Assembly: GCA_973895155.1 (NCBI GenBank)
Contig: OZ316893.1
Location: forward strand, 21,498,955 to 21,562,954
Reading direction: 5' to 3'
Source: Marsupella aquatica
Taxonomy: Eukaryota > Plantae > Marchantiophyta
DNA: 64,000 bases
Shown piece after piece: positions 9,445 to 64,000 of the stretch. Each line of letters opens with the position of its first letter. Positions within the stretch are counted from its first letter, which is position 1. The notes below the pieces were generated by a model. The model had not been told where the DNA came from. It saw only the letters and a program-made list of their open reading frames with translations, and searched no databases. The translations under genes were made by a program, and so were the position numbers.

Positions 9445-9555
9445 GGTTACTTAAGATTTGTGTAGATACTGAGATATGCTCTTGCTCATTCCTTGTATAG
9501 GCTACGGCTTAGTTCTAGTCTACTCTCATATAAAGAGGGAAAAACCGGTTTGGTT

Positions 9556-9900
9556 TGTTAGGATTTACTCTTAGGTCTAGAGTTACGACTGTACCATAGT
9601 TAAGGCTAACCTTAGTTGCAGACTTGGTTAGGTTAGTCATGTTGTGCACACTCTATAACCAAACGGTGTTTGCTTGGAGAGGTGGAACTCAGGCTCATTC
9701 TTACGGAGCTAGTTGAGAGATAGAGAGAGCTTGTGCTGTGGATGCTTGGTATGGCCGGTCGGCCTAGAGTGCAGTAAAGCTCTTGTGTGTTCCCGTGGAC
9801 GTAGCCTCATGTGGAGGTGAACCACGTATCTCTTTGTGTCGACTCTTGTGCGTTGGATGGTTCATGGGCTTGCCGTTGCAATTGTCGTCGATGCTCAACA
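9556..9900 (+). repeat. 3' LTR of copia element 1
   Basis: Matches 3637-3981 and is followed by TSD ATACA. Confidence 0.97.
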
Positions 9901-10299
9901 ATACAGGTCCCCAATTTGTCTCTTAGCAAATGAGTCCAGCTACACTTGCTGCAATTAGGGTTACAAGACGTTGGGGGCCATAAAAGGATTCTAAAAATCT
10001 TTTAACCCTAACAGGTACAGTATCTTTAGTATCTCAAACGAAAGTCAAGCTTGCTTTGGTGAAAAGTTCACAAACGCCCCTGCACTCTAATGCCCGACCG
10101 ACACTTGACTGGCAGGCCAAAGAACTACCTGACTTACACATGTGATGGACCCTTAGAAAATGAGTCCAGTATCACTTGGTACAGTTAGTTTACAAGGTGT
10201 TGGGGCCCATAAAAGGCTTTCAAAAATTCTTCTAGCCCTGTTGCACTATGTTTAGTGTCTCAAATGGCACTCAAATTTGCTTTTGAGAAATAAGTTCCC

Positions 10300-30200: not shown

Positions 30201-31133
30201 CAGAGTAGAAAATTTCTGCCGCGTCGCCTTCACTCCGCGTCAAGTGCCAATGTCGGGCTCAAAACGATCACCTCGCCGCGATCAAACCATTGAGCCGTAG
30301 CACTTCGCGTCTCTTCCACCGAGTCGGACGTCACGAAGAGAAACCCGGTTCAGATGTGAACAAGCTCCATAGCTTGTGAAAAAACCTGAACGCCTCCTTC
30401 ACTCGTCACGACATACTCGGTAACAACTCGGCAGCAATCCAGCTACCGAAACGACCAGCTCGCTTCAACCTTCAACTTGAGTTATAATGTGCGATCCCCC
30501 GATCACCGCAAAGCTCACACTGTTGAAAAACATGAACTCTGGTCTCTCCCCCGAAAAATCGTCGAACATGAATAAACCCTGAACAACGCAAACTTCAATT
30601 CCTCTGCACCACGGATACCAATCAGCGAGTTCTAACCACCGTTAGAAAGCCCTCTCACTAACCTATCCGCTCAGCCACACAAATTGGAGTTTCATGCGAC
30701 GAAACTCCGAATGTGCCACCGACAATGAACGCTGGAAAAACCTGTCACGAAAAAACCTCGTCACCTCCCAGGCATGCTCTGATACCACTTGTTAAGCATA
30801 GAAGACATTCGCAACGGCAAGCCCATGAACTATCCAACGCACAATAGTCGACACAAAGAGATACGTGGTTCACCTCCACATGAGGCTACGTCCACGGGAA
30901 CACACAAGAGCTTTACTGTACTCTAGGCCGACCGGCCATACCAAGCATCCACAGCACAAGCTCTCCCTATCTCTCAACTAGCTCTGTAACAATGAGCCTA
31001 AGTTCCGCCAGGGTCTAGCATCAACCCTGGCTATATGCACACCAGCACTACCGCTAACATTAGCTAAGTCCTAACTAGAGTTAGACTAACTGTGGTTAGC
31101 TCATGAGTCACAAGACTAGAGCAATATTTAACA
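24242..31133 (-). mobile_element. Full-length Ty1/copia LTR retrotransposon, decayed
   Basis: 344-bp LTRs at 24242-24585 and 30790-31133. TSD TGTCA at 24237-24241 and 31134-31138. PBS (reverse complement TGGTATCAGAGC) at 30776-30787. PPT AAGGGGGAGTT at ~24586-24596. gag/PR/IN/RT/RH fragments on the minus strand. Confidence 0.97.
24794..28712 (-). pseudogene. Disrupted gag-pol of copia element 2
   Basis: Fragments 28536-28778, 27852-28529 (CWNCGKHGHMKRDC zinc knuckle), 27293-27616, 27044-27226, 26696-26911, 25814-26641, 25568-25804 and 24794-25561. Stops plus an internal RT deletion. Confidence 0.93.
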
Positions 31134-31552
31134 TGTCATTCGCACTTAAGGCACATTGAATTAAGTGCACAAATTGTAGCATCTTTGTGTCATAAAATTT
31201 AATTGTACTTTTCATTGGTCACTATGTGCTTTTATTTGCATGTGCTTTACTTATATTAATTTATCCCATTCACGTTTACTATGTATTGTAGTTCTACTCT
31301 CTTATTTTATTCACTTACACATCACTACCAGACAAAAAGTCAAGCATGTTCCAGGATGAGCATGCTATATGTGCATTGTTCTGCTATTTTGTCTTAGAAT
31401 TAATCCAATCCCCACCTAGACGCAAATATCAATCCAATCTCATTAAGAGCAGGGCACACAGGTTTCATACAAGTGAACTCAATCGCAAAGGGAGGAGTTG
31501 AAAGGACCACCTGCACCAGGTGGAAGAAGAGGGAGTGGTGGACTTTTAAGGC

Positions 31553-31572
31553 TTAGGGTTTAGGGTTTAGGG
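31553..31572. promoter_or_regulatory. Telo-box cluster (TTAGGGTTTAGGGTTTAGGG) upstream of EBP1 copy 1
   Basis: About 3 tandem plant telomere units ~770 bp upstream of the ATG. TAGGGTTT also occurs in intron 1 of both EBP1 copies. Telo-boxes are known in promoters of plant translation and ribosome-biogenesis genes. Confidence 0.5.
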
Positions 31573-32341
31573 TCTTTCTTTCACTTTCTCTTCTTCTTGT
31601 TTGCAATGTTCAGCGATTGGTGTGGTGCAATTTCATCTCAGAATTCATCTCATCCAATCCCAACCTTGACTCAAATCCCAGTCCCATCTGGTTTCCAAGC
31701 AGACCAGACAGCTTTCTTACCGCCTGGTCAAGCGGGAGGACTTGAAAGGGCCATCCAAACCAACTGGTTAGGCCAGTAGGCCAGGGGATGAGCCTAGAAC
31801 TGAAAGGCCCCAGGTGTACAATCCCCCTTCCACATACAAGGGTGTGGAGGGTATATGTGTCTGGGTGGGATAGATCATGTGGATAGTGGATGAAAGTTCT
31901 GATTTTATCCTTAGCCCCTGGTTGTCCACTATGCTGCCCTGATTTAATCCTCTCCCTCGTGCCCTCGTGGTGCGGGATCCGTACTGAGATGGGTTCCCTA
32001 CATACAATGAATGTATATCACTATTGGGGTGGGGAGAGTCTAGAAAGTGTTTTTACTCATTTCCCTTCAAGACCAAAAGCAAATGAAAGGGCCCATCCAC
32101 AGCAGGTGAGAGGAGGGACAGGAGGGGTGGAGAAGGAGGGTTTTGGTTAGAGAGGGAAAAAAGAGAAGGGGCCATCCACACGAGGTGAGAGGAGGGGTGG
32201 AGAACGAGGGTTTTGGAGCGAGAGAGAGGGTTTGGATTTGGGGGTTTTGTTCTGAGTTGGGCACAGACACACACGAATGCACACGAATACAGAGGAGAAG
32301 AAATTTGCTTATATCACATTGGGAGTTTGAGAACAACAGCA

Positions 32342-35300
32342 ATGTCGGACGAGGAGACGAAGGACGAGAAGGAGCTCGATCTCTCATCTGCGGACGTCGT
32401 TACAAAGTATAAAAATGCTGCCGAAATTGCCAATAGTAAGCCCTCATGCCCTTCGTTTCGTTTGCCATTCGTTTCTTCGCATGTTTCGTCTCGCTGATTC
32501 TTAGGGCTTATAGTTTTGCGTGGAGAGGTTTAGAATCGGGGGATGTGATTAGGGTTTAGTGTATGTGCGTGCACGAGCATGAAGCAGTTGATTACGGGGC
32601 AGGTCCTGAAATTATCAAATTCTTGGGCCAGCGAGGTTTTCATATTCGGCTATGAAAGGCAAACGGTAACCCTTGTCACAAAATGGAAGTTTACTGGTGA
32701 TACGAGCGCACAGATGGCGGAAACCTGTGAGGACGGTGTTGGGCGCTTTCCCTGGTGTGTCTTCCGAAGAAAGAGGCTTTTTAATCGTGCGCAAGGCGAG
32801 GCCTAATTGTGATATCCTTTGTGTGCACGTTCCATCATTGCAGAGGCATTGCAATTGGTGCTGCAGGAAATTAAATCGGGAGTGAAAATCGTCGACCTTT
32901 GCGAGAAGGGAGATACTTTAATTAGAGAGTACGCCCTAAACCCTCTTTTGTTTCCTATTTTCCGTCTTTGTCCAACCCTTCACTATCCCATGGCCACGAA
33001 TTGTGGCCGGTGATGGGGACAATGGATCAGATCATGTGGGCTATTGCTTTTGACTGCTTTCTAACTACCGAATCTCGGGCTTGGGCATCAACGTTATGCC
33101 TGGCACTAAAGTCGTATCTGTCATTTGGCTCCTGGCAGTCTAACGGCAAATGTATTCAAAAATTCGAAGAAGAAAATTGAGAAAGGAGTAGCGTTTCCTA
33201 CCTGTGTCTCAGTCAATAATACTGTCTGCCATTTTTCACCCTTGGCAAGCGATGAGACAACACTCGTCGCCAACGATATCGTCAAAATGTAAGTTTCGTT
33301 GTCATACCTTGTCATTGTATTCGACAGTACCCACCAATATTGAAGGTATCTCAGGGTTCGTTGAAGGTTTTACTTCTCTTACATGGTGTCTGTCTACATC
33401 TTCAGTTTCTACGCGTTAGCAGAAAGTGTTCCACTGTACATAGGTCTCACACTGGGCGGCTTTTATTTGCAGCGACCTGGGTGTCCACATCGATGGATTC
33501 GTCGCCGTCGTCGCCCACACCCATGCACTTCAAGAGGGCCCCGTAACGGGCAGAGCAGCAGATGTGATCGCAGCAGCAAACACTGCCGCAGAGGTTGCCA
33601 TTCGGTTGGTCAGGCCAGGACGGAAGGTGAGGGGGGTTCGACACGAACAGATGGTCCTTATATTGTTTGACGGTCATGAATTTGTACCTTCGATAATTTG
33701 ATAACACTAATGAAGACCTCTCAAGAGTTGATGCATGCAAGCAGGTCACATCCTTACAGAATGTCTCTGATTTGTGAGTTTATTTGGTCGGTCCCGTCCT
33801 ACCTTAAATATGGTCATGCATTTTAAAATTTACCGTGCTTGTTACTTTCGTCCAGAATAAGGACGTAACAGAGGCCTTGCAAAAGGTGGCTGCTGCCTAT
33901 GATTGCAAAATTGCGGAGGGGGTGCTGAGTCACCAAATGAAGCAGTTCGTTATAGATGCCAACAAAGTTATTCTAAGTGCTGCAAACCCGGATACTCGTG
34001 TTGACGATGCCGAGTTCGAGGAAAATGAGGTTTATGCGATTGACATCGTCACCAGTACGGGTGATGGCAAGGTATGGTATCGAATGGCTTTGCTTGTTGC
34101 AAAAAGAGCGCGATCGGTACTTTGGTTGTGAGAAGCGGAGTATGCTCAATGCCTTTCATTAATTTGGACGAGGTCGTACAGTCGTTGATTCTTGAATCTG
34201 ATTTTCCAAGTCATATGGGATTCGCTAGCAAATCAGCAGTTGTGTTCATCAACAATTGATTTCACGTGTACTCAAGTAAACCCCTGGCTTTGGTGTGTGC
34301 AGCCAAGGTTACTGGATGAGAAGCAAACGACTGTCTACAAACGTGCAGTAGACAAAAATTATCACCTGAAGATGAAAGCCTCAAGGTTCATCGTTAGTGA
34401 GATCAACACAAAGTTCCCAGTTATGCCTTTCACCGCCAGGTATCTTTCTCGATCTTCCTCCTTCCCCAGGTCTTTCCCTGCAGGATGTGCATATCATGGG
34501 GTTCTTAGGAGGGATTGTCTCTGCATGACGGGGAATATGGTGGTCGTTGGATGTGTGTTCAATGACGGTGTGAAGTGTTGCATTACCTTTAATTAGGTGA
34601 ATGATCCTGTCATATTCAGATATCACAGTGATTTGAGCGTGGAATCGTTGTGAATTTGTATAGGGCACTGGAAGAAAAGCGGGCGCGTCTTGGCCTTGTG
34701 GAATGTGTAAACCATGAGCTGCTTATGCCATACCCGGTCCTGCACGAGAAGCCAGGTGCGCTCATGGCTCAGTCACGCGTTTATTTAGAATTTGTATATG
34801 CATGCGAGTTTTCTCCTCATGGTGTGTGTTGGGATTACGTGCTTTTAACCGTAGCAGATCCCTTGGTTCCTTGCAGGTGATCTCGTTGCCCACATCAAGT
34901 TCACTGTGCTGCTAATGCCTAACGGTTCAGATAGAATCACTGGTCATCCTCTTCAAGAGCTTGAGCCAACTAAACCTCTAGAGGATGCAGATGTCAAGGG
35001 CTGGTTGGCTTTAGGAACAAAAGCCAAGAAGAAAGGTGGTGGAAAGAAAAAGAAAGGTGCAGCGCCCCGCCATGTCTGAGTACATTTTGTGTTGTCATTG
35101 CCCATTTTGCATTTCTGAAGTATTTTTTCAGTGAGTTCTTCCAGGGTCGAACTTGTGATGCTATGAGCAGTGCTTTTCCGTAGGATTGAAGGAAAGTATG
35201 CCAGACAGTCGGGTGCACAGAATGCAGCGACTTTGCGTGTAAATGTGGTCACATGTTAGCTGTTTGAAGACTAATGATCTCATGTTCACACTTTTATGCA

Positions 35301-35381
35301 GGCAAGAAAAGTGAGGGCCAAGATGATGCTACTGAGGTGACTGCAGAGGCAGGAGAGGTAGAGAGTATGGATACCACTTAG
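32342..35381 (+). CDS. EBP1: ErbB3-binding protein 1 / proliferation-associated 2G4 (MetAP2-fold), copy 1
   Basis: Exons approx. 32342-32435, 32844-32928, 33139-33288, 33473-33626, 33856-34071, 34303-34439, 34663-34755, 34877-35056, 35302-35381. Motifs [94 protein letters not shown], and a Lys-rich C-terminus. Confidence 0.95.
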
Positions 35382-37126
35382 TTGGATATGGAGACTAGAA
35401 GGGAACATGGGGAGGTAGTAGCTGTGGATAGCTTACTACATTGCTTGTTCCTGGGTAGTTTTGCCGGACAGCTTACCATCAAGCACTGGTATGCTGAGTG
35501 GGCAACTTCGTTTTAGATTAGATTGTGTTGTAACGTTGAGTAGAAGCCATTCCTTCACCTGAAATTTTGTTCTTGATCTCCCATGAGCCTTTCATATTGT
35601 ATGTGAAATGTGATGTCTCCTATCAAGGGGCTTCTCTAGGAGAAGCTGATCCTCTAAACTTTGTCAGGTTACTTGTCCTTTGTGCTGGAGAACGTCTCTT
35701 GGCTTCACTGACCGCAGGATATGCGTAAGTTCTGTTGGAATTATGAAGTCTTCTAATTCTACTCCCAAATGGGTTTGGTTGAGGGATATACTTCATGTTT
35801 CACAAAGATCTATTCGGTACTGAGGTTTCTAATGCTCCTACTCTGCCACCAAATAATCTTTGCGGAGGGGCTGGTGCCAGGGCTGGTTGGGGAAGCGACT
35901 GGTCCCTGTGCGCTCGTTTTCCTGTTTATGTTGACGGAATTGTCAAGGAACATATTAGGCACGTGGATTTGATTTTATCTCGATTTGTTTTCTTCTTGGC
36001 TGTGCCTCTAACTACTTTCGTGCTTTACTTTCAAATACGCGGAGGTTGTACATTTAAGAAAACGCAATCAATCCAGCCGGACATTGTCAAATTCTAATCT
36101 AGCAATTATGAGAGACACCTCTGCGCACATGACCCCGCAGTTATAGTATTCTTGAATCAAGCGATGCAAGTGCTGGCTACCCCTTTCTCTCTCCGGAGAA
36201 GTTGGTAAAGAACGGGGATCTCCATAGTTTGTGCAACGCAGGGATTTCTTGTTAGTGTGCTCAGTCTTTTATACAGCTCCCAGGTGTAGATAAACCAGCA
36301 TCAAACGCGCAAGATGAGATCTGCTAACATAGGGCCCGGCAGTTTGTGACAGTTTCCTAGCTCCCAAGCGGAGATAAATCAGCATGAAACACTCAGAAAT
36401 GAGATCTCCTAACATTGGACCCAACCGTATGTTACATTTTCCCAGCTCCCAGGCGGAGGTAGATCAGCCGTAGAAATGAGATATAACATAGCACCCAACA
36501 GTTTGAAACGAGAGCCATCGGCGAGCTTGCGAAAGTGTGTCAGTCTCCACGCAGGTAATCTCTTACCTTCAGTTTAGCATGCAAAAGTTCCCCCCGGTTC
36601 TGGGATGACGACTCCATGTGGCACTTTCTTTCCTTTGTGATGGAATTCGTTTGTTTCCACACCGGTGGTGACCTTTGACCGAGCCGTCAGTTTTCTGTGT
36701 CGGAGACTCAACCTTGTCAGTGTCGTGGAAGGCAAGGTACATGGGTGCGTCAGGATTGAAGCAGTGCCAAATCGTGCGGTGTATTGGCTCGTCCGAAATG
36801 CGGTGTTCGCCGCTCCTGTTTCTGTTGTTGCCAAGCCTTTTGTTCGATTCATAAGCACAAGTTGGTCTGAGCTAACTGAAAACTGTCCCGAAAACATCCT
36901 GAGGATTATGGAGCGGTATGTTGGCTCTTCCGCAATGCATTGTTCGCCGCCCCGGTTCTCTGATGTTGCCAAAGGCTATTGCTCGATTCATAAGTGTAAT
37001 TTGTTGTGGGCTAAGTGATGACTTTTTGCCGAAAACATTCTCAGGATTCTGGAGCTATCGTGGACTGTAGCTAAGGGAAAACAATTACTAAATTCATAAT
37101 CGTATTCATAATTTTAGGTGAGTAAC

Positions 37127-37260
37127 TTACACATTTATTCCTCTCTACGATTCCGTGAGCTAAAGGACACAGCTTGTTGTAGAGAGAGTGCGTTACACAT
37201 TTATTCCTCTCTACGATTCCGTGAGCTAAAGGACACAGCTTGTTGTAGAGAGAGTGCGTT
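37127..37260. repeat. Perfect 66-bp tandem duplication
   Basis: ttacacatttattcctctctacg...gagagagtgcg at 37127 and 37193. Confidence 0.92.
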
Positions 37261-39017
37261 CTGCTCTGTGGTTTGGTTTCTGGGCTTTCACTGCCATGAT
37301 TTCTGTCTTGTCTTTGCGCATGCCGAAGAGGGTGGACTGGTTAGACCCTGGACGTAAGACAGCGACGTTGGAGAACGAAAATTCGACAAAAGGGAAGAAA
37401 TTTGGCTAAAGCGACGTAGGAATCCTCAGACCGCATGAAAGTTTTTCAACCGTTTCTGCCCGATCCGACAGACTTGTAATTCATCTGCCATCTTTGTACC
37501 TCTCCAGTTGGGTTCTCGTAAAGCTCTAACCGCAAGCCTGGATTATATCACTGGAGGATTTTCATCAAAGCTTGGGCGTTACTCAAGCTTGCTTTCGAAT
37601 CAAGCAGCTCCACATCCGGTAGAACCCTGCAGCCAATCGAATGGACCGGAGGTCAGGAAAGTTGAACGAAGTATTCAATCAAAAGTGAACAGAACTTAAG
37701 TAGGATGTGGGTCCCGATCAACTCGCTGTGCAGTGAAAACTTACAACGCATCTCAGCTTCGTAGAACAGTGCCAAACTTGAGTAGAAAGTCTCGGCCATG
37801 GTGAGGGTCCCGATCGACGCGCTTTCATTTTGTAAATTACACCGCAGCGCAGCTCCCCAGAGTAGTTCAACAGTCACTGAATGGTAAAAATTACTAACAA
37901 CGGTTTATACGCCCGGGACCCTGATCGCCAACTCACGTAGCAAACAACTTGCCAACGTTCGAAAAGGTAAAGTGCTCTACTGCAGATCGGCAAGTTACAA
38001 ATTGTGCAGCTTCTGATGACGCCATATCGGCGAAAACTCTTCACTCACCAAGTTGCAGCGAAGTTTGGATCTGGATTAGCCAACTTTTTCAACGATAAGG
38101 TCGACTTAGTGTATTATGAAACCTCGTATAGATTGTTTTCTTCAACAATCTGCAGGAAAAGAAAAAGCAGAATCGGACAGTATATATCCTGGGGTGTTGG
38201 GCGGTCCGTCCCATCCGTCTCGGTTGGAGACCCGCCCAGCCTCCACGTCCGCCAAGGAGGTCTGCATCTGTGAGAGAAGAGGACCAGGAGCTTTGAAACG
38301 GTGATGCCAGGACGCGGAAGAACAAGTCACGTGTGAAATCGGCTCTCTTTTCAATTCTAGTGCTGCCTGAACGGCTGCCAGTCTTCTCAAGCAACTAGCT
38401 TCGTGGAGGTACTGTTTGTCTGTTTGTCTGTCTGTCTGTCTGTGTCCAATCGCTGCCTTTCGAATGCGGGGTGGATCATGCAACTCTCTAGTTTTTGTGC
38501 TATATTTTAGTGGCGGATGCTTCGATCTTCGAGGCTGAACGCAGTCCTTATTTGAGCTTGCGTTCTCAAATCGATCTGCTGTGCGTTTGAAGGCAAGTAA
38601 ATGAAGGCCTTTAATCTATAGCGTGCTGGAGTTCTGAGGGGCTCACGAGGCTCTGGCTATTCTATGGAGAAAAAAACAGGGGTGTGGTCAATTGTTGAGA
38701 GGGCTTACCTTGTAACCAGATTTTTCCACTATATTTTTCCTATGGTTCATTTGAACGCTGTGAAGATCAACTTGCTTTCTAGTAGACCGCCGCACTTCTT
38801 TCCTTGCACCGAGAATGGCGCACCTGTTATCACTTCATTAACTTTCATTGGAGTGATAATGCGACTTGCACCTGATCAAGGTTCCTCCTGGTCACCGTAG
38901 CTACTCCAGCTGAGCCATACAGCCGACACCGAACTTGTCTGGGTCTCAACGTGGAGCTTGTTCTCTGGGATTTCAGTCACAAATTTCTGTTGTTTCAGTC
39001 TTGGAGACCGTCTACAT

Positions 39018-40295
39018 ATGATGGCTGCCATGAAGTATAGTGTGGTTCTAGTCGTTCTTTACTCCATTCCTGCCACGGCAACAACGGCAGTGTTTCACAC
39101 GAATTGCACCCGACCCGCATCTGATTCCCATTTCAATTTCGTCACTGCACCGAACACGAGGGGAACATTCGAGATACTATGGAGCTGCCTCTTCACCCTG
39201 TTCATCTGCACCTGGCAAGTTCAACATCTGAACGTCCTTCCCCAGAATAGCAGCAGTCGGGAACTGTTTTGGAAAAAGCCATGGTGGATGGTTGTGACGC
39301 TGTTGGCACCTGAGATTTTAGTGGGAACAGCTTTGGAGGATTTTGTGTTAGCTAAGAGGAGCGTGAGATACATGCAACACGAGCTTCCGAAATTGGTTGA
39401 GGAGGGAGGTTGGACGATGACGCACGCTTTCTATGCTAATATGTATGGATTTATGGTAAGGAGGAGGGTACGCACTGAGGGAGTCTCTGCCATTTCCCCT
39501 ATTTCAACAGATTTATTAGTATTAAATGTGGAGAGAATGGTTATATATCTTAAATCTCTTCCTTCCTCAAGAATTTTCATCACCGAAGCCGATATCCAAC
39601 GCAGAGCGAAAGGAGACATTTTTGTAAAATGCATTGCAGGATTCCAAGTCTTCTGGTTCATTGTCCAAGTGTGTGCTCGCAAAGCCCAGAATCTACAGAT
39701 TTCACAACTTGAAATTGCGGTTTTAGCGTTTGCTATCTGTACTTTACCAAGCTACCTATTGTGGATAAAGAAACCTCAAGATGTGAGTGTTCCAACGATT
39801 CTGGACGAGGGTCCTGAACCATTGCCCATCTCGGATGACTGGTTTGACAATCGTGATGCTTCCAGTGAGGCTTCTGTGAATCTGGCTGCCGCTACTACTC
39901 TGGCAGTATTTGACCTTCCTTTAGGAATTTGGCTTGGAATAAACTTAGTGGGCTTCAGTGTGGGAGGCACTATTTTTGGGGCCGCTCATCTATTAGCTTG
40001 GAATCTACACTTTCCCACCCACACTGAGAAAATTCTTTGGAGGACATTTTCAATTATAACAACAGCAATTCCTCCATTGTTTTTACTTTTCTTTGTACTA
40101 GTTTATACATATGAGATTAAGAAAGGCGTTTCTACGCATGAGATGAAGAAAACCCGCGGCATATATTTGATATTCTTCGGGTTATACGCAATTTTTAGGT
40201 TATATCTTGTGGTGGAAAGTTTCAGGTCTTTAGGGTTTTTACCAGCAGGGGCTTTTGTGACAACATGGTCAACATACATGCCACATGTGATGTGA
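39018..40295 (+). CDS. Multi-pass membrane protein (intronless CDS) of an uncharacterised fungal-type family; candidate horizontal transfer
   Basis: 425-codon open frame from ATG 39018, with a hydrophobic N-terminal leader and several transmembrane-like segments. Motifs NCTRP..NFVTAPNTRGTFEILWSCLFTLFICTWQVQHLNV, LLAPE, WTMTHAFYANMYGF, ITEADI..RAKGD..K.IA..QV.WF..Q..AR, ISQLEIAVLAFA, W.KKPQDV, FGAAHLLAWNLHFPT..E..LWR, LY..FRLYLVVESFRSL..LP..AF..TWS...PH. I recall this series from ascomycete hypothetical proteins; not database-verified. Confidence 0.8.
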   Translation: MMAAMKYSVVLVVLYSIPATATTAVFHTNCTRPASDSHFNFVTAPNTRGTFEILWSCLFTLFICTWQVQHLNVLPQNSSSRELFWKKPWWMVVTLLAPEILVGTALEDFVLAKRSVRYMQHELPKLVEEGGWTMTHAFYANMYGFMVRRRVRTEGVSAISPISTDLLVLNVERMVIYLKSLPSSRIFITEADIQRRAKGDIFVKCIAGFQVFWFIVQVCARKAQNLQISQLEIAVLAFAICTLPSYLLWIKKPQDVSVPTILDEGPEPLPISDDWFDNRDASSEASVNLAAATTLAVFDLPLGIWLGINLVGFSVGGTIFGAAHLLAWNLHFPTHTEKILWRTFSIITTAIPPLFLLFFVLVYTYEIKKGVSTHEMKKTRGIYLIFFGLYAIFRLYLVVESFRSLGFLPAGAFVTTWSTYMPHVM

Positions 40296-42106
40296 TACAG
40301 TAACCTACTCGGGGGAATACTATATTTGTGAATAAAAGCTGGGCTTACCAGAAGTCATTTAAGGGATCCAGTAATAGGGGGACTCAAACATAGGCCGTGG
40401 CTTCTTTCCTGGCAGTCCGAGTTAGGTTCCGGTGGACATGGCCGTAAAGGTGTGCAGCAGCCCCCAGGGCAGGTCTGCACACAGTTGCCACGGGGTTTGA
40501 GTGTCTCCCGGCGACCGTTTGGGCCCCAGGGGTTAAGGTGACATGTTTGAAAATACCTGTGCTCGTCTTCCATGATTTCTAGGTGCGAGGTGTAGCAGAG
40601 TGATTTCAAGCAAAGAACTTGCCCTTCTCACTTGGCGCGATGAGTTTGAAGTTCAAAATCACACATAAAATGTGGGGCTGGATCACGCGGGCGTTTCAAG
40701 ATTGAAGGTATGACACTCTGCGTCGCCTGCAGCAATTCTCTATTTCCGCAGCACTGGTATCCCGGTGCGTCAAAAAGTTAAAACCCAAAAAAATCAAGCC
40801 CGTGAAATGAGCCCACGGTCACCCTTACAGACATGAGGGTCATTCCGTGGCAGGATGAACTAGCCCTAATTTTGAGACCCCCTAAATAATCACTTTGGGT
40901 TTTAGGACCTGGCACGTGTGATGTGGTAGAGGAACCTTGCGAGGGGAATACTACAATAGTTTTGCTGAGTGAGGACTTTCATTATCAAAAATGGTTGTTG
41001 GGTGATGCCTTCCTTATTCACTTGGGATTTGGGAAGAAAACACCTAGTGAACAATCATGTTTTACTTTGGATATCTGTATTATTTTTGTCTAGATCATTT
41101 ACAGAAATTTACAAACAATTCTGCAAATTCTCCTGTCCCCATCACTGGTCTGTAACCTTGGGAGACTCCGCAACAATTTCCAACCCAGGCCGAACTCCTC
41201 AATAGACCTTTTCTCATGCTCTCCCAAGTTTCAGTAATGATGCCCCTGTCCATGCTAAGGTTGGTTCGGATTACCGGAGCCCCAGATACAGGACTAGCCC
41301 CACTTTGGCCACTTTCAAGTCATATGCAGACAAACCCAAAAAGTTCCTGTCAACATAGTGTTTTACATATATTACTAATAGAGTGCAATCCAAATATACC
41401 CTTCAGGGTTCCCCTCTAGACTGTGATTCTAAGGGAATAACTACAAGTGCATTTAAAAAACACGGACAGGAGCAAAGATGAAGGGGAAATGATAAGTTTT
41501 TTTGTTGTTGTTGCAAGATTGTTTTTTTTGTCTCATCTCTATTTACATTCAAGGAACATTTAATCAGGCTAGTGTTGACACAAATTTGGATGGGCTATCA
41601 GCTAAACCAAGCCAGGATGTTTGGGCAAAATCAAAAGTACTTTTGATAGTGACCGTAGACAATCATTTACTGTAAATCAGATTTTTCTCCTCATGTGATG
41701 TAAGTCTAAACTTCCAAATGGATATTAATCTTACGCAGCAAGGAACTGTTCTGGCACGAGCTTGGTCGGATTCTGTTGAAGTTTACTTTGATGGAATTGG
41801 AGCTCATTACAAGTCTTTCAGCCCAGTTGAATTTTAGACCCTCATATACGCAAAGAATTGAAGAAGAAGCCTAAAAGGAATTGTATGGCTGGCCAACCAT
41901 CTGCAAGCCAAGAAACACTTACTAATGGAAATCTCAAACCTGGAAACATCTTTGCTTGTCACAAGCAGCGCTAAGTCCATCTCTAGGACTCAGAGTATCT
42001 TTTTTCTTGGTTCCAATCTACAGAGGTTTCCTCATGCTTGAAGCTGAAATCAAGGATATTCTGGAGGCCTACTAGAATGCAAAAGACTTGCATTCTACAA
42101 ATTTAT

Positions 42107-42392
42107 GAAATCCAAGCATGAGCTGGACTGTTGTTGCAAGTTCTTTGTTCAGTTTTATGCCATCAAGTACAAGGATAATACCTCTTTGGTGCACCGAGTG
42201 AGCAGGGCACCTGTGAAAAACCACCAAGCCAAGGAGGAAGATCTTTCAAACTGAGAGTACACAACAGTTAATAGGAACAACACTTCTGCATGAAATACTC
42301 AAAGGTCACATGTGCCCAAAGTCAGATGATCGCCACTAGTCTATTGATGCACTCTTCTTGAAGGAGATTGATCTGAAATTTCTAAGAAGGGA
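42107..42392 (+). pseudogene. Decayed fragment of the CLSY-like gene exon (homologous to 60526-60805)
   Basis: gaaatccaagcatgagctggactgttgttgcaagttctttgttcagttttatg...gatgcactcttcttgaaggaga aligns directly with 60526-60805. Contains indels and a TGG>TAG stop. Confidence 0.88.
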
Positions 42393-44371
42393 GGGGTTTT
42401 CATACCTTCTATCTCTCTCCATGTAACCAAAATCCACCTCCTCCACTCTCTCTTCTTCCACCCTCAGGAGGGGGTCTCTATATGGAGGGCCATACATCAC
42501 ATTAGACATTTTAGGGTTTGACCCTCCAAACTTATAAATGAAACTTTTTTCCGCAACACTCTTTCTTTCTTTAAATTTTGCCATTTTTTAACTTAAAAAC
42601 TCAAAAAAACTTTAAAGGAAATGTTTTTTATAATTAAATAGGCCTATTTGTTCTTTAAAGTCGACCAGGAAACCGACCAATGAATAAAACATGCTCTATT
42701 TGTTCTTCCACAAAACTTTGGAAATTTTCCACCACACCCATTTGAATGGGCCTATAATTATTTTGTCGCATGTGATGTGTCACTTCCATCGATTACCTGT
42801 TGCAGATTACAGCTCATCCCTCTCAAGTGAGTTGTACGGTACATGTCCGTCCTACTCTAAAATGAGACTAGATTGGGATTTACTTCGAGGATGGGATTGC
42901 AATGGGATAAATTCTCAGGTGAAATGGCAGAACAACCCAAACAAGATGAAGAGAAGGACACAACAAAAGGATCATGATAAATGGAGAGAGGGGGAGAGAA
43001 GAACGGCAGCTCTCAAATGCACCCACAGTCACAATGGACATGCCAGCCGTGGTAGAGCCAACCCTTGATATCTAACCAAGTTACTGCACACCAAATTTAT
43101 TGTTTTCATCTCTCAGCTCCGAAGTATGAATGACTGCAGCCATCAATACTCAAACTAAAGTCGGATGCTAAGCTGACCTGAGTAGGATGACAGGCACCCA
43201 TATCTGGGCTACATGAATCAGTTCCCGTCCTCTTCATGAACCTCAGTGAGCTTCTAGGGTATTGTTTTGTGTCTTGAATGCATCTACACACTATAGTAAA
43301 GGACCCCGCTCTTTTCGTGGCATCACCTACTTACGAAAGTAGAGTTGGTGGGAATCAATCCCAACCGTTAGATTCTCATGGAATTATGAATTTTCCTGGA
43401 TCCAGCTCATCATGGTAATACATACCGAGTTTATGCATATTCCTTCCCATTCTTCCTCAAACTACTATCACAAACTGTCATGGTGGCTGCAAGCAGGGTA
43501 GCCGTATTTAGTTCATGAAAGTTGTGGTGGTACACTAGTTCCTTCACTTGTCCTTGTCTAGTTTGGCAAGTCAGAAAACTAAATCCTGAAAGTGTACAAG
43601 AGAGCAAAACAACCAAGTGATTGGCTTATGAATGCAAAAAAAGTTCAGGTCAAGCCAAATTATGATGGCACAATCCTAAGTTTTGTCCTCTCATCCCCTC
43701 ATTGCAACTTTGTGTCATCAGATGGTTGTTTCCTGTCACTTGGGAAAAGGGACACAAGGTGCTCACTCTTTTGGTTATGTCTACCCAAGATGGGAATTGA
43801 AGCGAGCACTGCCTACAGGCTCTAAGTACACAACTTTAAGAACTACTTGTTGCCCTCATTAACATGATGCCCTCATTAACATGCTGCCAGCCCATTTGAG
43901 GGGACAACTACACGGGCAGAGATCGATTTGCTATACCTATTTAAATTTGCGCTAGGTGAGTTTACTTGAAGCTTTTTTCATTCTTCCCCTTCAATCTGTT
44001 GTCTGTCCTATTTCCCAGTCAAGGATCTTTTGACATTGATACATATTCATTCATCAAAATGTTGAGGCTCTCCCAACTTTGAGATAAATAGACAAAGACA
44101 AGTGGAGAAACTAGTGTACCAACTATGACAGCTTTCACAAACTACCCTGTAGCCACCATGACAATTTTATTTAGCTTTCTGAAGGAGAATGGGAAGGAAC
44201 ATGGGAAACAGTATGCAAAAAATGGGTAGTCCCAAGATATGCTAGATGAGGGAAAAACATAATTTAGGGATCCCTTGCTTACTCACTTGCCCACATGTAC
44301 TTGTGATAATTCCCTGCCCTTTGTAGATATGATTGTCACACCCCCAAATTGAGGTAAGGGAATGGGAGAAC

Positions 44372-44664
44372 TGTTGAGGATAATCCCTATCCCGAGACAC
44401 CATGCACATGTGAACACCATACAAAGTAGTCGACACAACGAATACGTGGTTCACCTCATGACCGAGGCTACGTCCACGAGAAAGTAATAGACCTTTACTT
44501 CTCTCTTGCCCAACTCCAACAATGAACTGAAGATCCACCAGGGACTGGCACTAGCCCTGGCTATATACACAACAGCACTACCGCTAACCTTAGCTAAGTC
44601 CTAACCTGAGTTAGCCTAATTGTGGTTAGCTCAAGAGTCACAAGACTAAGAGCAATACCTAACA
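44372..44664 (-). mobile_element. Solo LTR related to copia element 2
   Basis: TGTTG...TAACA termini, 293 bp. Perfect TSD AGAAC at 44367-44371 and 44665-44669. The stretch agcactaccgctaaccttagctaagtcctaac...gagtcacaagacta matches the copia-2 LTR. Confidence 0.9.
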
Positions 44665-45549
44665 AGAACAAACACTCAAAATAATCTCATGCCCTTAAAT
44701 TCAAGTGAGTGCATGGGAGCTCAAATTCATGTCAAAAATATCCATCCATTCATTTGTTCTTTTTGCAGCAAAACAAGTGAATCAGTCCCTTGCCAGCTTA
44801 CTAGCTACTAAACTTCTCCACGATAGGTTCATCATATAGTACGAGACCCCGGTCAATATGGCGCATGTATGTGGCGCCTGTGACCTTATTTAGGTCAGCT
44901 TACCACCTGACTTTGAGTATCAACAGCTGCGGTCATTTGTTCTTGTGAGACAAAAGATGGAACCTGTTGATTCAGAGTGCAATAACTATGGTTAATTAAC
45001 AAGGGTTGGCTCTATCACGGACGGAGTGTCTCCCATGTGCGCGGGTGCATTTGAAAGCTGTCATTCTTCTCTCCCCCTCTCTCCCTTTATGATGATCCCT
45101 TTCTTCCTTTCCTTTTCTTTTCATCTTATTTGTGTTGTTTTGCAATTTTGTTTTGGAATTAATCCCATCCCAATCCCAACCTCCACATGAATCCCAATAT
45201 CATGTCAGTTCACACCAGGGTGGACGGGTGGTTTGCGTCTTGGTCGAGAGGGGAGGAGTAGAAAGAGTCACCCACACCAAGTAGATATATAGTAGAGGAG
45301 TAGGAGGAGTATTTTGGTTAGAGACACACTCAGAGAGAAGGAGAGAGAAAAGGGGAAGGAAAATTATTATTATATTTAAATTTATTATATCTCACGGACG
45401 ACGTGCAAGAGAAAGGTTTAGGTTAGGTTTTTGATTTGGGGGGTTTTGAGTCCTCGAATCGACGCAGACACACGAATCCAGAGCGGGAGTGAATTGCTCA
45501 TTTCTCACAGACAGACACACGAATACAGAGGGGAGAGAATTGCTTTTCT

Positions 45550-45582
<33 letters not shown>

Positions 45583-45735
45583 GAAGGACGACCTGCAAGA
45601 GAAAGGGTTGGATTGGGTTGTGGGTTGGATTGGGTTGTGGGTTGTGGATTGAGTGGGTTTTGGGCAAAGAGGCACACACAGGAATACAGAGGAGAGGGAA
45701 TTGCTTCGATCGTTGGGAGTTTGAGAACAACAGCA

Positions 45736-48700
45736 ATGTCAGAGGAGGAGACTAAGGACGAGAAGGAGCTTGATCTCTCATCCGCGGACGTCGTTACAAA
45801 GTATAAAAATGCTGCCGAAATTGCTAATAGTAAGTCGTTGTGCCCTTCGTTTCGTTTCCATTCGTTTCTTCGCATGTTGCGTCTCGCTGATTCTTAGGGG
45901 TTTAGTTGGTGCGTGGACAGGTTTAGGATCCGGGCATGTTATTAGGGTTTGGTTTGTGTGCTTGCACAAGCATGAAGCAGTTGATTACGGGGCAGGTCCT
46001 GAAATCTTTAGATTCTTGGTCCCGTGGGTTTTGACATTGGACTATGAAAGGCAAACGGAAACCCTTGTCACAAAGTGGAGGCGTACTGGTGATAGGAGCG
46101 CACAGACTGCGCAGAATTGTGAGGACGGTGTTGGGTTCTGTACCAGGAAGAGGAGATGTCTGAACCGTGCGCAAGACAATGCCTAACTGTGATGAACCTT
46201 TGTGTGCACGTTCCATCCTTGCAGAGGCATTGCAATTGGTGCTGCAGGAAGCTAAACCGGGGGTGAAAGTCGTCGACCTTTGTGAGAAGGGAGATACTTT
46301 GATTAGAGAGTACGCCCTAAACCCTTGGTTCTTTCCTATTTTCCGTCTTTTTCCAACCCTTCACTATTCCATAGCCACGAATTGAGGCCAGTGACGGGGA
46401 CAATGGATGGGCTACTGCTTTTTACTGCTTTCTAACTGTCGAATCTTGGGCTTGGAGATATCAATGTTATGACTGGCACTGAAGTCGTATCTGTCATTTG
46501 GCTCCTGGCAGTCTAACGGCAAATGTATTCAAAAATTCGAAGAAGAAAATTGAGAAAGGAATAGCGTTTCCTACCTGTGTCTCAGTCAATAATACCGTCT
46601 GCCATTTTTCACCCTTGGCAAGCGATGAGACGACACTCACCGCCAACGATATCGTCAAAATGTAAGTTTCGTTGTCACACCTTGTCATTGTATGTGATAG
46701 TACCCACCAGTGTTGAAGGCATCTCAGGGTTTGGTGAAGGTTTTACTTCTCTTCATGGTGTGTGTCTACATCTTCATTTAGTACGCGCTAGCAGAAAATG
46801 TTCCACTGTACATAGGTCTCACGCTGGGCGGCTTTTATTTGCAGCGATCTGGGTGTCCACATCGATGGATTTGTCGCCGTCGTCGCCCACACCCATGCTC
46901 TTCAAGAGGGCCCCGTAACGGGCAGAGCAGCAGATGTGATCGCAGCAGCAAACACGGCTGCTGAGGTTGCTCTTCGGTTGGTCAGGCCAGGACGGAAGGT
47001 GAGGGTATTCCACACGAACCGATGGTCTTCATGATTTGTTTGACGGTCATCAATTCTTACCATCGATAATTTTGATACCACTTATTAAGACTTCTCAAGA
47101 TTTCATGCATGCAAGCAAGTTACATCGTTACACAAGGTCTTTGATTTGGGAGTGTTATCTGGTCGGTCCCGTCGTACCTTGAATATGATGTTGTAATGTA
47201 AATTTACCGTGGCTGTTACTTTCGTCCAGAATAAGGACGTGACAGAGGCCTTGCAAAAGGTGGCTACTGCTTATGATTGCAAAATTGCGGAGGGGGTGCT
47301 GAGTCACCAAATGAAGCAGTTCGTTATAGATGCCAACAAAGTTATTCTAAGTTCTGCAAACCCGGATACTCGTGTTGACGATGCCGAGTTCGAGGAAAAT
47401 GAGGTTTATGCGATTGACATCGTCACCAGTACGGGTGATGGCAAGGTATGGTATAGAATGGCTTTGCTTGTTGCAAAAAGAGCGCGATCGGTACTTTGGT
47501 TGTGAGAAGCGGAGTATGCTCAATGCCTTTCATTTAATTGGACGATGTCGTACAGTCGTTGAGTCTTGAATCTGATTTTCCAAGACATCTGGGATTTGCT
47601 AGCAAATCAGCAGTTGTGTTCATCAACAATTGATTTCGCGTGTACTCAAGTAAACCCTTGGCTTTGCTGTGTGCAGCCAAGGTTACTGGATGAGAAGCAA
47701 ACGACTGTCTACAAACGTGCAGTAGACAAAAACTATCACTTGAAGATGAAAGCCTCAAGGTTCATCTTTAGTGAGATCAACACAAAGTTCCCAATCATGC
47801 CTTTCACCGCCAGGTATCTTTCTCTCTCTTCTCCCTTCCTCAGGATGTGCACATCATGTGGTTCTTAAAAGGGATTGTCTCTGCATGACGGGTGATATGG
47901 TGGTCTATTTATGTGTGTTCAATGACGGTATCAGTGTTGCATGACCTGTACTTAGGTGAATTATCATGTCTTATTCAGATTTTGGCAGACTTTGAGGATA
48001 TGATACTGATTTGAGCTTCGAACGCTTGTGAATTTGTCTAGGGCACTGGAAGAAAAGCGGGCTCGTCTCGGCCTTGTGGAATGTGTAAACCATGAGCTGC
48101 TTATGCCATACCCGGTCCTTCACGAGAAGCCAGGTGCATTCATCGCTCAGTCACGCGTTCATCTAGAACTTAGATCGGCATGCGAGTTTTCTCTCTCATG
48201 GTGTTTGTCGGTTTACGTGCTTTTGACCATAGCAGATCCCTTGGTTCTCGCAGGTGATCTCGTTGCCCACATCAAGTTCACTGTGCTGCTAATGCCTAAC
48301 GGTTCAGATAGAATCACTGGTCATCCTCTTCAAGAGCTTGAGCCAACTAAGCCTCTAGAGGATGCAGATGTCAAGGGCTGGTTGGCACTGGGAACAAAAG
48401 CCAAGAAGAAAGGTGGTGGAAAGAAAAAGAAAGGTGCAGCGCCCTGCCATGTCTGAGTACATTTTGTGTTTTGCTGTAAACGGTGGCCATTTACATTTCT
48501 GAAGTATTTTCTCAGTGAGTTCTCCCAGGGTCGAACTTGTGATGTCATGAACGCCGTGTGCTTTTCCGTAGAACTGAAGGAAAGTATGCCAGACTGTCGG
48601 GTGCACCCTATGCAGCGACTTTGCGTGTAATTAGTGGTCACATGTTAGATGTTTGAATAGTAATTCACAGACCCAGGGGAAGGTTTCTTCAATGAATTCC

Positions 48701-48856
48701 AAAATGTGGAGCTCCTATTAGGGGAATGTGTCAGTAGTCATCACACTAATGACCTCATGTTCACACTTTTACGCAGGCAAGAAAGGTGAGGGTCAAGATG
48801 ATACTGCCGAGGTGACTGCAGAGGCAGGAGAGGTAGAGAGTATGGATACCACTTAG
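45736..48856 (+). CDS. EBP1: ErbB3-binding protein 1 / PA2G4, copy 2
   Basis: Same 9-exon structure as copy 1 (ATG 45736; TAG ends 48856). Near-identical protein with few substitutions (e.g. AKPGVKV vs IKSGVKI). Confidence 0.95.
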
Positions 48857-51800
48857 TTGGATACCCAATGACGAGAAGGGAACATGGGGAGTTAGTAGCC
48901 CTGGATAGCTTACTATACTGCATGTTCCTGGGTAGTTTTGCCGCACGGCTTACCTCAAGCACTGGTATGCTGATTGTGCACTTCATTTAGAGTAGATTGT
49001 GTTGTAATGGTGAGTGTTTTGGAGAAGTCATTCCTTCACCTGAAATTTTGTTCTTGATCTCCCATGAGCCTTTCATATTGTATGTGAAATGTGATGTCTT
49101 CTATCAATTGTCTTCTCGAGAACGGGCTGATCCTCTGAACTAGCAGTCAGGTTACTTGTACTTTGTGCTGGAGAATGCTGGTTGGCTTCACTGACCGCAG
49201 CTTATGCGTAAGTTCTGTTCTGTTGGAGTTCGAATTCTACTCCCAAGTGAGGTTGGTTGAGATTTTACTTCATGATCACAGAGAGCTATTCGGTACTGAT
49301 GTTTTGAATGCTGCTACTCCGCCACCAATAATCTTTGGCCGAGGGGGTAGGGCCGGGGGGGGGGTGGGGGGCGCGCTGGGGAAGAGATCGGTCCCTGAGT
49401 GCTCTTTTCACTCTCTGTTGACATGAATTTCCAACGAACATAATAGGGACGTGGATTTTTATTTGATCTTTGATTTGTCTTGTTCTTGGCTGTGCCTTCA
49501 CTTCTTTTCTCGTTTACTTTCAATACGCGGAGGTTGTACATTTAAGGAAACGCGATCAATCCAGATGGACATTTTAAAATTGTGATTTAGCAAATATCAA
49601 AGACACCTCCGTGCACATGACCCCGCAGTTAGAGTCTTCTTTTATTAAGAGATCCAAGCGCCGGCCACTTGTTTCCTCTCGGGAGAAGTTGGTAAAGAAC
49701 GGAGGATCTCCATTGTTTGTGCAACGCTGGGATTTCTTCTTAGTGTGCTCAGTCTTTGCCCAGCTCCCAGGCGTAAATAAATCAGCATCGAACACGCAAA
49801 AATGAGATCTCCTAACATAGAACCGGGCACTTTGTGACAGTTTCCCAGCTCCCAGGCGGGGGATAAATCAGTATCGAACACGCAGAAATGGGATCTTCTA
49901 ACATAAGACCCAACAGTATGAACCCTGAGCCGTTGGCGAGCTTCCAAAAGTTCTCTCCCCACATGAGGTTTCTATGTGGTTTGGTTAGATTGTGTTTGAG
50001 ACATGTTTGGTGGAACGGAGCTTGTTTCAAGTCATTCAACCAAGTTGGATTTTGGCGACTCATATACTCAAAGAAGAAGCAGAAGAAGAAGAAGAAGCCT
50101 TGAAGGGATTGTTGGGCTGGCCAAGGATCTGTAACTCAAGAAACACTAATGGAAATTGTCGAACTTGAAAACATGCACTTTGGGAGAGAGACTACTTGCA
50201 TTTCTAGAACTCACCGGATGGTTTTTCTTAGCTCGGATGTGGAGTGCTTTAGTCATGCTCCAAGCTGATATAAAAAAGCGAATGCCATGCTCCAAGCTGG
50301 AATCTAAAAGCAAATGTGCATTCTTTGAATGTTAATAGAAAGGGCCCATTCTGTAAATGTTAATAGAAATATTTTTTTTGGGATTCCTAGGAAAAAGAGT
50401 AAACCTATTACCAGTGTATCCCTCCGAGTACTTATGACTCTTGTCGACTTCAGGCCTATTCAACTGGGATGGTTCCAAGTCGAAATACGGGAAGGCTCGG
50501 CGCAGCACAAATGTATTTTGATATACCCGAAACATGGATTTTATATAAACCCATGGATCGTGAAAAATTAGTGACACCGTCTCCTGGCGAAATATCATTA
50601 TAATCTCCGGACAAAATTAGTCAATTATTTCCCAAATATAATTCTAGTTTTAATCCATTACGTGGGAGTGCTATACAATGTTCAGTGATACAATTACAAC
50701 AAAACAATCACCATGAGTGATATCATTATTTTTTACATACATAACATCCTATGATTCTTTCCATCCATAGCTTATATCATTTTGACTTCGCCCTGGAAAC
50801 CCAGACCACAACTATAGCTTATATCATTTTGACTTTGCTCTAGAAACCCAGACTGCAACTCTAGCTTTTATTATTTTGAATACATATCATCCCATGTTTA
50901 TTTTCATCCACATAGTCAATAGTTTATATCATTTTGACTTTGCTCTAGTATTTCATTTTGACAAACATAACATCTCATGGTTCTTTCTATCCACATGGTC
51001 AATAACTAATATCATATTGATAAACATAACATCCCATGGTGCTTATACATCCCGTGGTTCTTTCCATCCACATAGTAACAGTGTAGAGGCTTCACTTTAG
51101 AAACTTAGAACTCAACTCTAGCTTCTCATCACCATTTATTAGTAAGATTATGGAGATCTACAAGATTACACAAGGCTTGCAAGAGCCGTTGCTGTCCATG
51201 CAATAGTGACTGAAATGGCCCTCTTGCGTGAATGGAGCCATTCCATTGCAGACCAATCCAGTCGAATACAGGCCGTAAGTAATGCTTGTTTGAACCGAGA
51301 CATAGATGTCACCAAGGTAAAGGTTTGCCAAGCTGATTGGAGGTGCCCCTCCATTTACCCAATATTTTTTACTCTTTGAAGCAGGAGTATATAATCTCAG
51401 GAAAGTTTCAAACTTTGTCATGTAATAGATTGGACATCAAAAAACCTGTTAGAAGAAATCGAGCTCAAATAGAGAGTAGAAGTAAGAAGGTTGTCCCAAG
51501 AAACAAACAAGTCTGCCAAAAACCAACACTTTATAGTTGGTGGGGGTGCCTGAAAAAGCCACTTGATGCATCCCTCACAAAAGTGACACACCCTTCCCAA
51601 AATTCCATTAAAAATGCAGCCTTTTCTTTTGCTATAAATTGGCTGATGACTTTGTGCAGTCCATGTGCCTGGATGGTCAAGGTACAGTGTCGGGGACAGT
51701 GTCTCGGTCCATCCAAATTCATTTCCAGGTAGTTTGGGTGTATATGCAAAGAGTTAGGCTACAATAGAGTTAAATATCTAGATACTCTAGAGTTAAATGT

Positions 51801-62700: not shown

Positions 62701-64000
62701 ATTTAGCAAAAGTTGGAGAGTGATATGAGGCTGACTCACATTGGTCGACGAACCTTCCAGGTACTCTTAGAGCGGCTATTTACTGGTGGCTATCTGAAAG
62801 GACTCATGACAAGCTCAAATCTGGATAGTGGTAGAACATGTGGAAGACATTCCCAAATTTGTGTCTGTTGTAGTTGTATGTAAGGATGCTCCAAACTGCC
62901 TGAACGTTGCAGTTTGCCAAAGGGTCTTGAACAGTTTTCCTTGATGATAAGATAGGATCAACTGGATCAAACAGCACATGCCAATCTGCGCTCTGTGGAT
63001 TGACTTTTTGCCCATCTCTTTCGCAGTCTTCAGTTTTGCTTTTTGTGTAGGTTAGCACGGAGCAAGCCTTGCCGCTAACTTCACAAGAAGCTGGGCAACC
63101 TGAAGTGTTAGAATGCGATGGCGACATTGAGGGAATCAGATGTGAACACAAGAATCAATTATTCAAAGATGATGTCGGACAAGTTTGTATGAATTGTGGG
63201 ATTATCACAGATCGTATTGAGGATGTGGTTCCTCAAGTGGTAAGCGTTCACTGCTTGTCTTTTCCTTTCAATTCAGTGACTGAAGAACTCGACATTTAGA
63301 ACCATGAGTTTTTTTTATAACGTCCTAATGTCTCTATTTATTGGGTGGTTGTCATAGTCCTTGTTAGCGAAGCTGAATTTCTTTACAGGAATATCAGGGT
63401 CTCTATTGAGGTTGACTTGGATTGCACAGGAACTTCCTAAGCGCCGCCTTCGAGAGGCAGATCAGGATGAGTGGGATTTTGATAGATATTCTCCAGACGG
63501 AAACGAGGGAGCAGTAGGGTACGACCAGATCAAGAATGAGGAGGTTGTACCCATGCTGAATACATCTCTACCACCTCATTATGCCAAGCAAATGCATCCT
63601 CACCAAAAGGATGGTTTTGAGTTTCTCTGGAGGAACCTTGGCTTTGATGCACAAGGAAATTTGAGAACCAAGAGGGCAGATAGGAACGCAGGCTGCATCT
63701 TGTCCCATGCTCCCGGTACTGGCAAGTCCTTCCTGATTATTTCATTTTTAAAAAGCTACATGGATAGATTTCCTACTTGCCGGCCACTAATTGTGGCTCC
63801 CAAGATTATGCTTCTGCGCTGGCAGAAAGAGTTTGCAAGATGGAAATCAGACATCAAGGTTTTCATACTGAACACAGCACTCACTTCTGGGAAGAGGCTT
63901 CTGCAGAAGCATGAAGAAACTGGGGTTGTTAGTCTCAAAAGTCATCAAATGAATTCCAGATCACAACTTAATACCCTCAGGTCGGCTATTCTCTATGAAT
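59720..64000 (+). CDS. CLSY: CLASSY (CLSY1/2-like) SAWADEE-SNF2 chromatin remodeller, partial (start uncertain, 3' end beyond window)
   Basis: Exons approx. 59720-59982, 60494-62434, 63051-63239 and 63430-end. SAWADEE-like N-terminus (FEAYLKGAWWEV, LRLRAR..DCT.LKKGVDVSV, YDAKIVKV...H...CCCKFFVQFY). Cys/His motif CEH..FKDDVGQVCMNCG. SNF2 motifs MHPHQKDGFEFLWRNL, GCILSHAPGTGKSFLIISFL, RPLIVAPK..L..WQKEF..W. Confidence 0.88.

Follow-up and report, generated by a model that had tools for sequence, protein, structure and literature searches.

A fungal-family membrane-protein gene in a leafy liverwort locus, probably acquired through an old horizontal transfer

Results

Organization of the locus

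The window analyzed in this study, meaning the whole stretch of 64,000 nt of Marsupella aquatica DNA, carries at 39018-40295 (plus strand) an open reading frame (ORF) encoding a membrane protein of 425 amino acids with a predicted signal peptide at about residues 1-21, six or seven membrane helices and a cytosolic alpha/beta insert, which belongs to a Dikarya family lacking a Pfam entry. The ORF lies between two intact EBP1/PA2G4 genes of the same strand (copy 1 at 32342-35381 and its tandem duplicate, copy 2, at 45736-48856), each with nine exons, 395 encoded amino acids and introns that are all of the GT..AG type. Two related copia retroelements are found at 3637-9902 (plus strand) and 24242-31133 (minus strand), whose LTRs show 98% and 96% identity and whose coding frames are disrupted, with longest open stretches of 367 and 293 codons; an LTR-like fragment lies at 44427-44665. 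A preliminary description of this DNA had proposed an intact single-exon frame among spliced plant genes and decayed transposable elements, and all three points were borne out by the stop-free translation, the flanking EBP1 pair and the broken state of both copia elements. The GC content of the ORF (0.44, GC3 0.44) is like that of its surroundings, and the GC3 of EBP1 is 0.51. Elsewhere in the window, a Glu-rich frame at 13101-14081, free of Pfam matches, has an end resembling the start of an ARID domain, and an exon of an SNF2-family helicase occupies 63358-64000 at the window end.

The spliced EBP1 proteins share 95-96% identity with those of Calypogeia fissa, 88% with Riccia and M. paleacea, 84% with Sphagnum and 79% with seed plants, and one EBP1 exon is 100% identical to C. 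fissa and 94% identical to Riccia and Marchantia; since EBP1 is closest to C. fissa, the ORF locus belongs to a leafy liverwort close to Calypogeia. The tandem duplication comprises units at 32257-36536 and 45660-49951, and the two gene copies are 96% identical in their coding sequences (28 synonymous and 14 non-synonymous codon differences) and 89% identical in their introns. Two EBP1 genes also occur in C. fissa, but on separate contigs. The ORF is contained in a 5.2-kb block (36537-41786) of the first duplication unit that is missing from the second, where position 49951 continues directly into 50006; insertion after the EBP1 duplication and deletion from the second unit are both compatible with this arrangement and cannot be told apart, and the flanks of the block show neither terminal repeats nor target duplications. 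In addition, 54 nt at 40907-40960 (plus strand), located 631 nt downstream of the ORF 3' end beyond a multi-copy repeat, match 40276-40329 (the last codons and the start of the 3'UTR) at 74%, and may be what is left of a tandem copy that has decayed.

The DNA of the ORF region was identical in four runs from two studies. In run X1, which may be the window's own sample, one contig corresponded to 37231-40765 without a single difference and neighboring contigs of similar depth covered 35589-37156 and 40742-42589, and run X2, from the other study, matched 37231-39131 and 39954-42161 in three pieces; run X5 held only two identical 151-nt pieces and was left out. The read contigs tile 35589-42589 except for a break upstream at a 66-nt tandem repeat, and no single read record of these four runs and two studies joins the ORF to EBP1. 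In runs X2 and X4, the exact sequence is accompanied by a version diverged by ~9% at the EBP1 introns, the upstream DNA and the ORF, in differing ratios, and over positions 30000-49999 and the ORF run X6 contains diverged versions only, a pattern that suggests two related taxa mixed in these samples rather than an allopolyploid.

Upstream of the ORF, a candidate 5'UTR intron of 590 nt spans 38409-38998 (plus strand), with GT..AG borders, a GTCT microsatellite at its start and eight upstream ATGs that its splicing would eliminate. Its acceptor AG ends at 38998, as proposed previously, whereas the donor GT lies at 38409 instead of ~38412. According to a splice matrix trained on the eight distinct EBP1 introns, the donor ranks eighth among 60 GT sites and the acceptor eighth among 49 AG sites. 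The T content upstream of the ORF steps from 0.21 to 0.32 (p=0.003), the values for EBP1 exons and introns being 0.22 and 0.34, and the best change point falls at ~38330, away from the candidate donor. These sequence features weakly support the candidate intron, which can be considered plausible. A TATA-like site at 38181-38187 (plus strand), presumed functional, is the sole match to the pattern in 37801-39018. The presumed first 5'UTR exon also contains a 10-codon upstream ORF at 38304-38336, and one contig found in runs X2 and X4 skips 38292-38366, which spans this upstream ORF.

Homologs and family membership

Searches of a protein database that includes Riccia, Marchantia, Sphagnum and angiosperm proteins returned 49 matches to the ORF protein, namely four from C. 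fissa (54, 44, 46 and 49% identity), 18 from named fungi (17 ascomycetes and one basidiomycete) and 27 without an organism name, with no named plant beyond C. fissa; the 66 matches to a profile of the five liverwort proteins likewise named the same four C. fissa proteins as the only plants. An exhaustive HMMER search recovered 10,377 clusters at E<=0.001. Among the best 150 of these, 19 were looked up and all nine naming an organism were fungi, including Geoglossum, Acephala, Podospora, Biscogniauxia, Glutinoglossum, Leucocoprinus and Fibroporia, and fungal identity to the ORF protein within the same best 150 clusters reached at most ~49% over the matched stretches. Clusters of Ascomycota and Basidiomycota were also found in the ESM Atlas at 0.97, without a named match. 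The BLASTP/HMMER check of the proposed fungal affinity therefore left only fungi among the named matches other than C. fissa. Pattern scans of viral and prokaryote contigs detected no member of the family, and a metagenome scan with the liverwort alignment gave no relative, the locus of highest identity (L010) being fungal-like.

No Pfam family was assigned to the ORF protein and PDB sequence searches returned nothing significant; when 24 family members were compared with Pfam, only a fused DnaJ passed the cut-off, and no fusion with HET, NACHT or repeat domains was found. The Dikarya family is, we assume, PANTHER PTHR35043. This name was absent from the literature searched, including the supplements of PMC12890914 and PMC11906373. 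All motifs named in the preliminary description occur in the ORF protein and correspond to conserved columns of a 149-sequence alignment, in which the ORF protein keeps 55 of the 58 columns conserved at >=85%, its three deviations being equal to the fungal median. Membership in a fungal membrane-protein family was thereby confirmed through full-length homology, the ordered motifs and two glutamates (E99 and E232) that are invariant in 149 of 149 rows.

The closest relative, C. fissa CAM6088010.1, is 54% identical over the full length and has the same signal-peptide and N-C-T start, but it is found on a different contig from either C. fissa EBP1 gene, so that synteny with the ORF locus is not demonstrable. 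The other C. fissa members of the clade are CAM6084336.1, CAM6123449.1 and CAM6123519.1 ('unnamed protein product'). The contigs that carry the C. fissa homologs measure 34, 47 and 5 Mb; EBP1 and CAM6084336 share the one of 47 Mb, 139 accession numbers apart. Proteins from Geoglossum simile (KAI9766810.1), Acephala macrosclerotiorum (KAF8861684.1) and Podospora (KAK4444478.1) share with the ORF protein the core motifs, E99/E232 and the predicted topology, whereas the liverwort copies differ from fungal members in their shorter loops, in D195R and S197A and in the lack of a conserved P-N-D motif before helix 5. Some members are unusual: in the basidiomycete proteins P0321 (Leucocoprinus) and P0326 (Fibroporia) the N-terminal half typical of the family is tandemly repeated, and one member, P0264, has a DnaJ domain.

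Phylogenetic analysis

In a FastTree phylogeny of 186 rows, from which two rows longer than 900 amino acids were omitted, the five liverwort proteins formed one clade (100) with no unnamed row inside it. The mixture-model tree was unrooted and built from 68 rows, picked for length and spread from the top matches of the query and including three named basidiomycetes; it recovered the liverwort clade at 100/99, with the ORF protein and CAM6088010 as sisters (99/89), and placed this clade within a group of 51 rows (99/98) in which every named fungus belongs to the Pezizomycotina (Leotiomycetes, Eurotiomycetes, Sordariomycetes and Geoglossomycetes). The immediate sister group of the liverwort clade was weakly resolved (63/89). 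In AU tests, neither a sister position of the liverworts to the 47 rows of the Pezizomycotina subfamily (p=0.258) nor their joining to two basidiomycete rows (p=0.136) was rejected. Nesting within fungi, the tree result expected from a transfer, is accordingly given by the best tree but not statistically forced by the AU tests. Two more specific placements were also considered: the sampled homolog of Hyaloscypha hepaticicola was rejected as sister of the liverworts (AU test, p=0.021), and the mixture-model tree gave no support to Geoglossomycetes, the top named fungal match, as the donor.

The liverwort proteins lie at a distance of 2.5 from the subfamily (38% identity), against 2.33 (39%) within the subfamily, whose rows are selected top matches, and 3.63 (30%) between the subfamily and the basidiomycetes, represented by three rows only. 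The liverwort proteins are thus nearer to the subfamily than the basidiomycetes are, the opposite of what would be expected had they descended from the common ancestor of plants and fungi. The substitutions D195R and S197A, common to all liverwort rows, may be read as in keeping with one transfer event. Regarding gene structure, the ascomycete-type fungal locus L028 holds a single open frame of ~560 codons, and basidiomycete-type loci show gaps of ~40 nt that resemble introns; given an intronless ascomycete-type locus, the lack of introns in the liverwort gene requires no RNA intermediate.

Paralogs and selection

Copy number of the family in the host was estimated from read contigs alone. At 80% likeness, 81, 73 and 23 contigs of runs X2, X4 and X6, respectively, fell on the ORF, and up to 10 contigs per ORF site carried a differing letter. 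So many divergent contigs imply that the host and a close relative carry several paralogs, and the ORF is a member of a multi-copy liverwort family rather than a singleton. Of 40 listed differences, 20 were synonymous, where 28% would be expected (p=0.003; omega ~0.4); the 40 sites are the best-supported subset of 270, are pooled over paralogs and in several cases share codons. Four of five independent net indels were in frame (-6, +39, -42 and +3) and one was not (-29). Truncation affects two of the four proteins of C. fissa, and one read-contig paralog is frameshifted. At the sequence level, the family pattern resembles a birth-and-death process in which purifying selection operates. The synonymous excess and the mostly in-frame indels also support the earlier claim that the gene has been retained under selection.

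The copy in the window has changes of its own. It carries P74L and G143Y at columns conserved at 97%, and its paralogs keep P74; a second copy of the ORF is ~91% identical (28 differences in 309 nt), and this divergence approaches that of the introns of the tandem EBP1 copies (89% identical). The two substitutions and the near-intron-level divergence indicate that constraint on this copy may be relaxed. The terminal branch of the ORF protein measures 0.42 and that of its C. fissa sister 0.48.

Predicted structure

The structure model of the ORF protein reached a pLDDT of 86 and a pTM of 0.85. Hydropathy, loop charge and an N-C-T sequon, the last found in 76 of 142 rows, suggest that both termini are luminal. 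Behind the signal peptide, the predicted order is helix 1, a pair of helices interrupted at P98-E99, an alpha/beta insert in the cytosol whose loops are long and variable, and then another five helices; the loop at 221-230 conflicts with the positive-inside rule. One face of a helix carries Q210, W213, Q217 and R221, and H324, Y390, R394, E400 and R403 are conserved. With the whole model and with residues 22-265 as queries, Foldseek comparisons with PDB and viral models retrieved only generic helical bundles (best E 0.49 and 0.96), and the same was true of VIA, where the best Z values were 9.7, for a vinculin tail with 119 aligned residues at an rmsd of 3.5, and 7.1; these results do not by themselves prove a novel fold. 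Set against known channel, transporter or membrane-enzyme folds (bestrophin, ORAI, VTC, NINJ, CREST and GPCR-like), the membrane core gave nothing beyond such bundles in these same searches.

Discussion

Altogether, the searches, the trees and the paralog patterns support the fungus-to-plant transfer put forward in the preliminary description, and we consider it very probable that an old transfer from a fungus to a leafy liverwort, shared with C. fissa, gave rise to this gene. Fungal contamination or a chimeric assembly could be suspected, because leafy liverworts house ascomycete endophytes (bioRxiv 2025.04.01.646537) and the span from the ORF to EBP1 is absent from every single read record of the four runs, but such an artifact is extremely unlikely when identical DNA was found in two studies with contigs tiling across the region, the closest relatives are on megabase-scale C. 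fissa contigs, one of which carries EBP1, the ORF matches its surroundings in GC content, the fungal proteins in the best 150 of the 10,377 clusters are so distant and sisterhood with the sampled H. hepaticicola homolog was rejected. Vertical descent of an ancient eukaryotic family, followed by its loss from every other sampled plant and alga, is somewhat less remote and still very unlikely. The unrooted tree and the AU tests leave the root unplaced, and with relatives known from the best 150 clusters distant plant or algal members may exist; against this, the liverwort proteins are as near to one Pezizomycotina subfamily as its own members are, and nearer than the basidiomycetes, no other plant was named in 49 or 66 matches and the scans of viral and prokaryote contigs were without a relative. 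A single transfer from a filamentous ascomycete to an ancestor of leafy liverworts is therefore the likely course of events. Such a transfer probably started with the uptake of an intronless ascomycete gene as DNA, which would then have acquired a host promoter and 5'UTR intron and undergone birth-and-death duplication within the liverworts.

Origin by transfer and retention of the ORF, taken jointly, are quite probable. The transfer could be real and the copy in the window nevertheless a redundant duplicate that is silent or has come under relaxed selection, as its specific P74L and G143Y substitutions, the absence of the 5.2-kb block from the second tandem unit, the weak splice-site scores of the candidate 5'UTR intron and the 9% divergence from the nearest second copy might indicate. 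We regard such redundancy as unlikely, since the frame is full-length, only three of the 58 conserved columns are altered and the terminal branch is not longer than that of the C. fissa sister.

With regard to function, a channel or transporter ranks first among the possible readings, ahead of a membrane enzyme and, in third place, a non-self sensor or effector. Channels and transporters typically have acidic residues buried where helices break, as well as polar stripes, and on the basis of the model the ORF protein may tentatively be seen as a channel or transporter of the secretory pathway or plasma membrane. The signal peptide would be cleaved and the luminal N-terminus glycosylated; six membrane-spanning helices would be joined by the pair broken at P98-E99, probably re-entrant; E99, E232, the Q210-W213-Q217-R221 stripe, H324 and R394/E400/R403 might surround a pathway taken by ions or a small solute, and the cytosolic region of H70, H136, K198 and D200 could serve for gating or ligand binding. 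That the protein acts where rhizoid and fungus meet is speculation.

The other functional readings share the same origin. A membrane-embedded enzyme, such as a lipid- or glycan-modifying hydrolase or transferase with His, Glu and Cys as catalytic residues or metal ligands, would account for the conservation of H70 (138/149), H136 (146/149), H324 (144/149), C64 (144/149), E337, E400 and the luminal C30, and enzymes are encoded by many of the fungal genes reported in liverworts (PMC12513842, PMC12890914). It is nonetheless rather doubtful, because the predicted topology sets H70/H136 and H324 on opposite sides of the membrane, leaving no single shared site, and because in the 12 of 30 fungal loci scanned the neighbors formed no common biosynthetic cluster and shared no Pfam family. 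Less likely again is a non-self sensor or cell-death effector expanded through conflict with fungi. The family is very large and fast-diversifying, with hypervariable loops (77-334 amino acids), its liverwort branch shows birth and death, with half of the C. fissa proteins truncated and one paralog frameshifted, and HET-domain and NACHT genes are found at a distance of 4-7 kb from the homolog at locus L028 (L028:74-4217); however, such neighbors occurred at only one of the 12 scanned loci, none of the 24 members scanned was fused to HET, NACHT or repeat domains, and the conserved core is inside the membrane rather than on a variable ligand surface.

Transfers of fungal genes into liverworts are amply documented, and the event as such comes as no surprise. 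PMC12513842 describes 1,809 transferred orthogroups in 49 streptophytes, with ~229 per bryophyte, and notes that transferred genes are often intron-poor, lie in LTR-rich regions and lack a known function; PMC12890914 and PMC12454661 report further fungal transfers into bryophytes. No paper was found on this membrane family or its transfer, and Supplementary Data 8-12 of PMC12513842 may list it. What matters here is that the gene was retained and multiplied in a lineage hosting ascomycete symbionts in its rhizoids, and that its product stems from a very large fungal family with a confident structure model and no family, structural or functional match. According to the main text of bioRxiv 2025.04.01.646537, in the form available, C. 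fissa has a recent genome duplication and forms an ericoid mycorrhiza with H. hepaticicola, and axenic cultures and RNA-seq with and without this fungus have been obtained; that text contains no mention of horizontal transfer. As such RNA-seq data exist, a link to the symbiosis is testable on existing data. The chance is small that ericoid-mycorrhizal leafy liverworts captured and expanded an ascomycete membrane protein of undescribed fold that now serves them as a channel or transporter where rhizoid and fungus meet. If that were true, a component of the symbiosis would have been borrowed from the fungal side, and studies of what a fungal family of 10,000 clusters does would have a first point of entry.

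Among the liverwort genes of fungal origin described in PMC12513842 and PMC12890914, the MTPSL terpene synthases, the fruit-body lectin FBT, YANB, EUPF, RDS1 and GH88 are enzymes, lectins or a stress-linked gene, whereas the product of the ORF is a multi-pass membrane protein that has no Pfam or structural counterpart, of a family that among plants was seen here only in Calypogeia-like hosts. All of them nevertheless resemble the ORF in having a fungal donor, few or no introns, an LTR-rich setting and later duplication.
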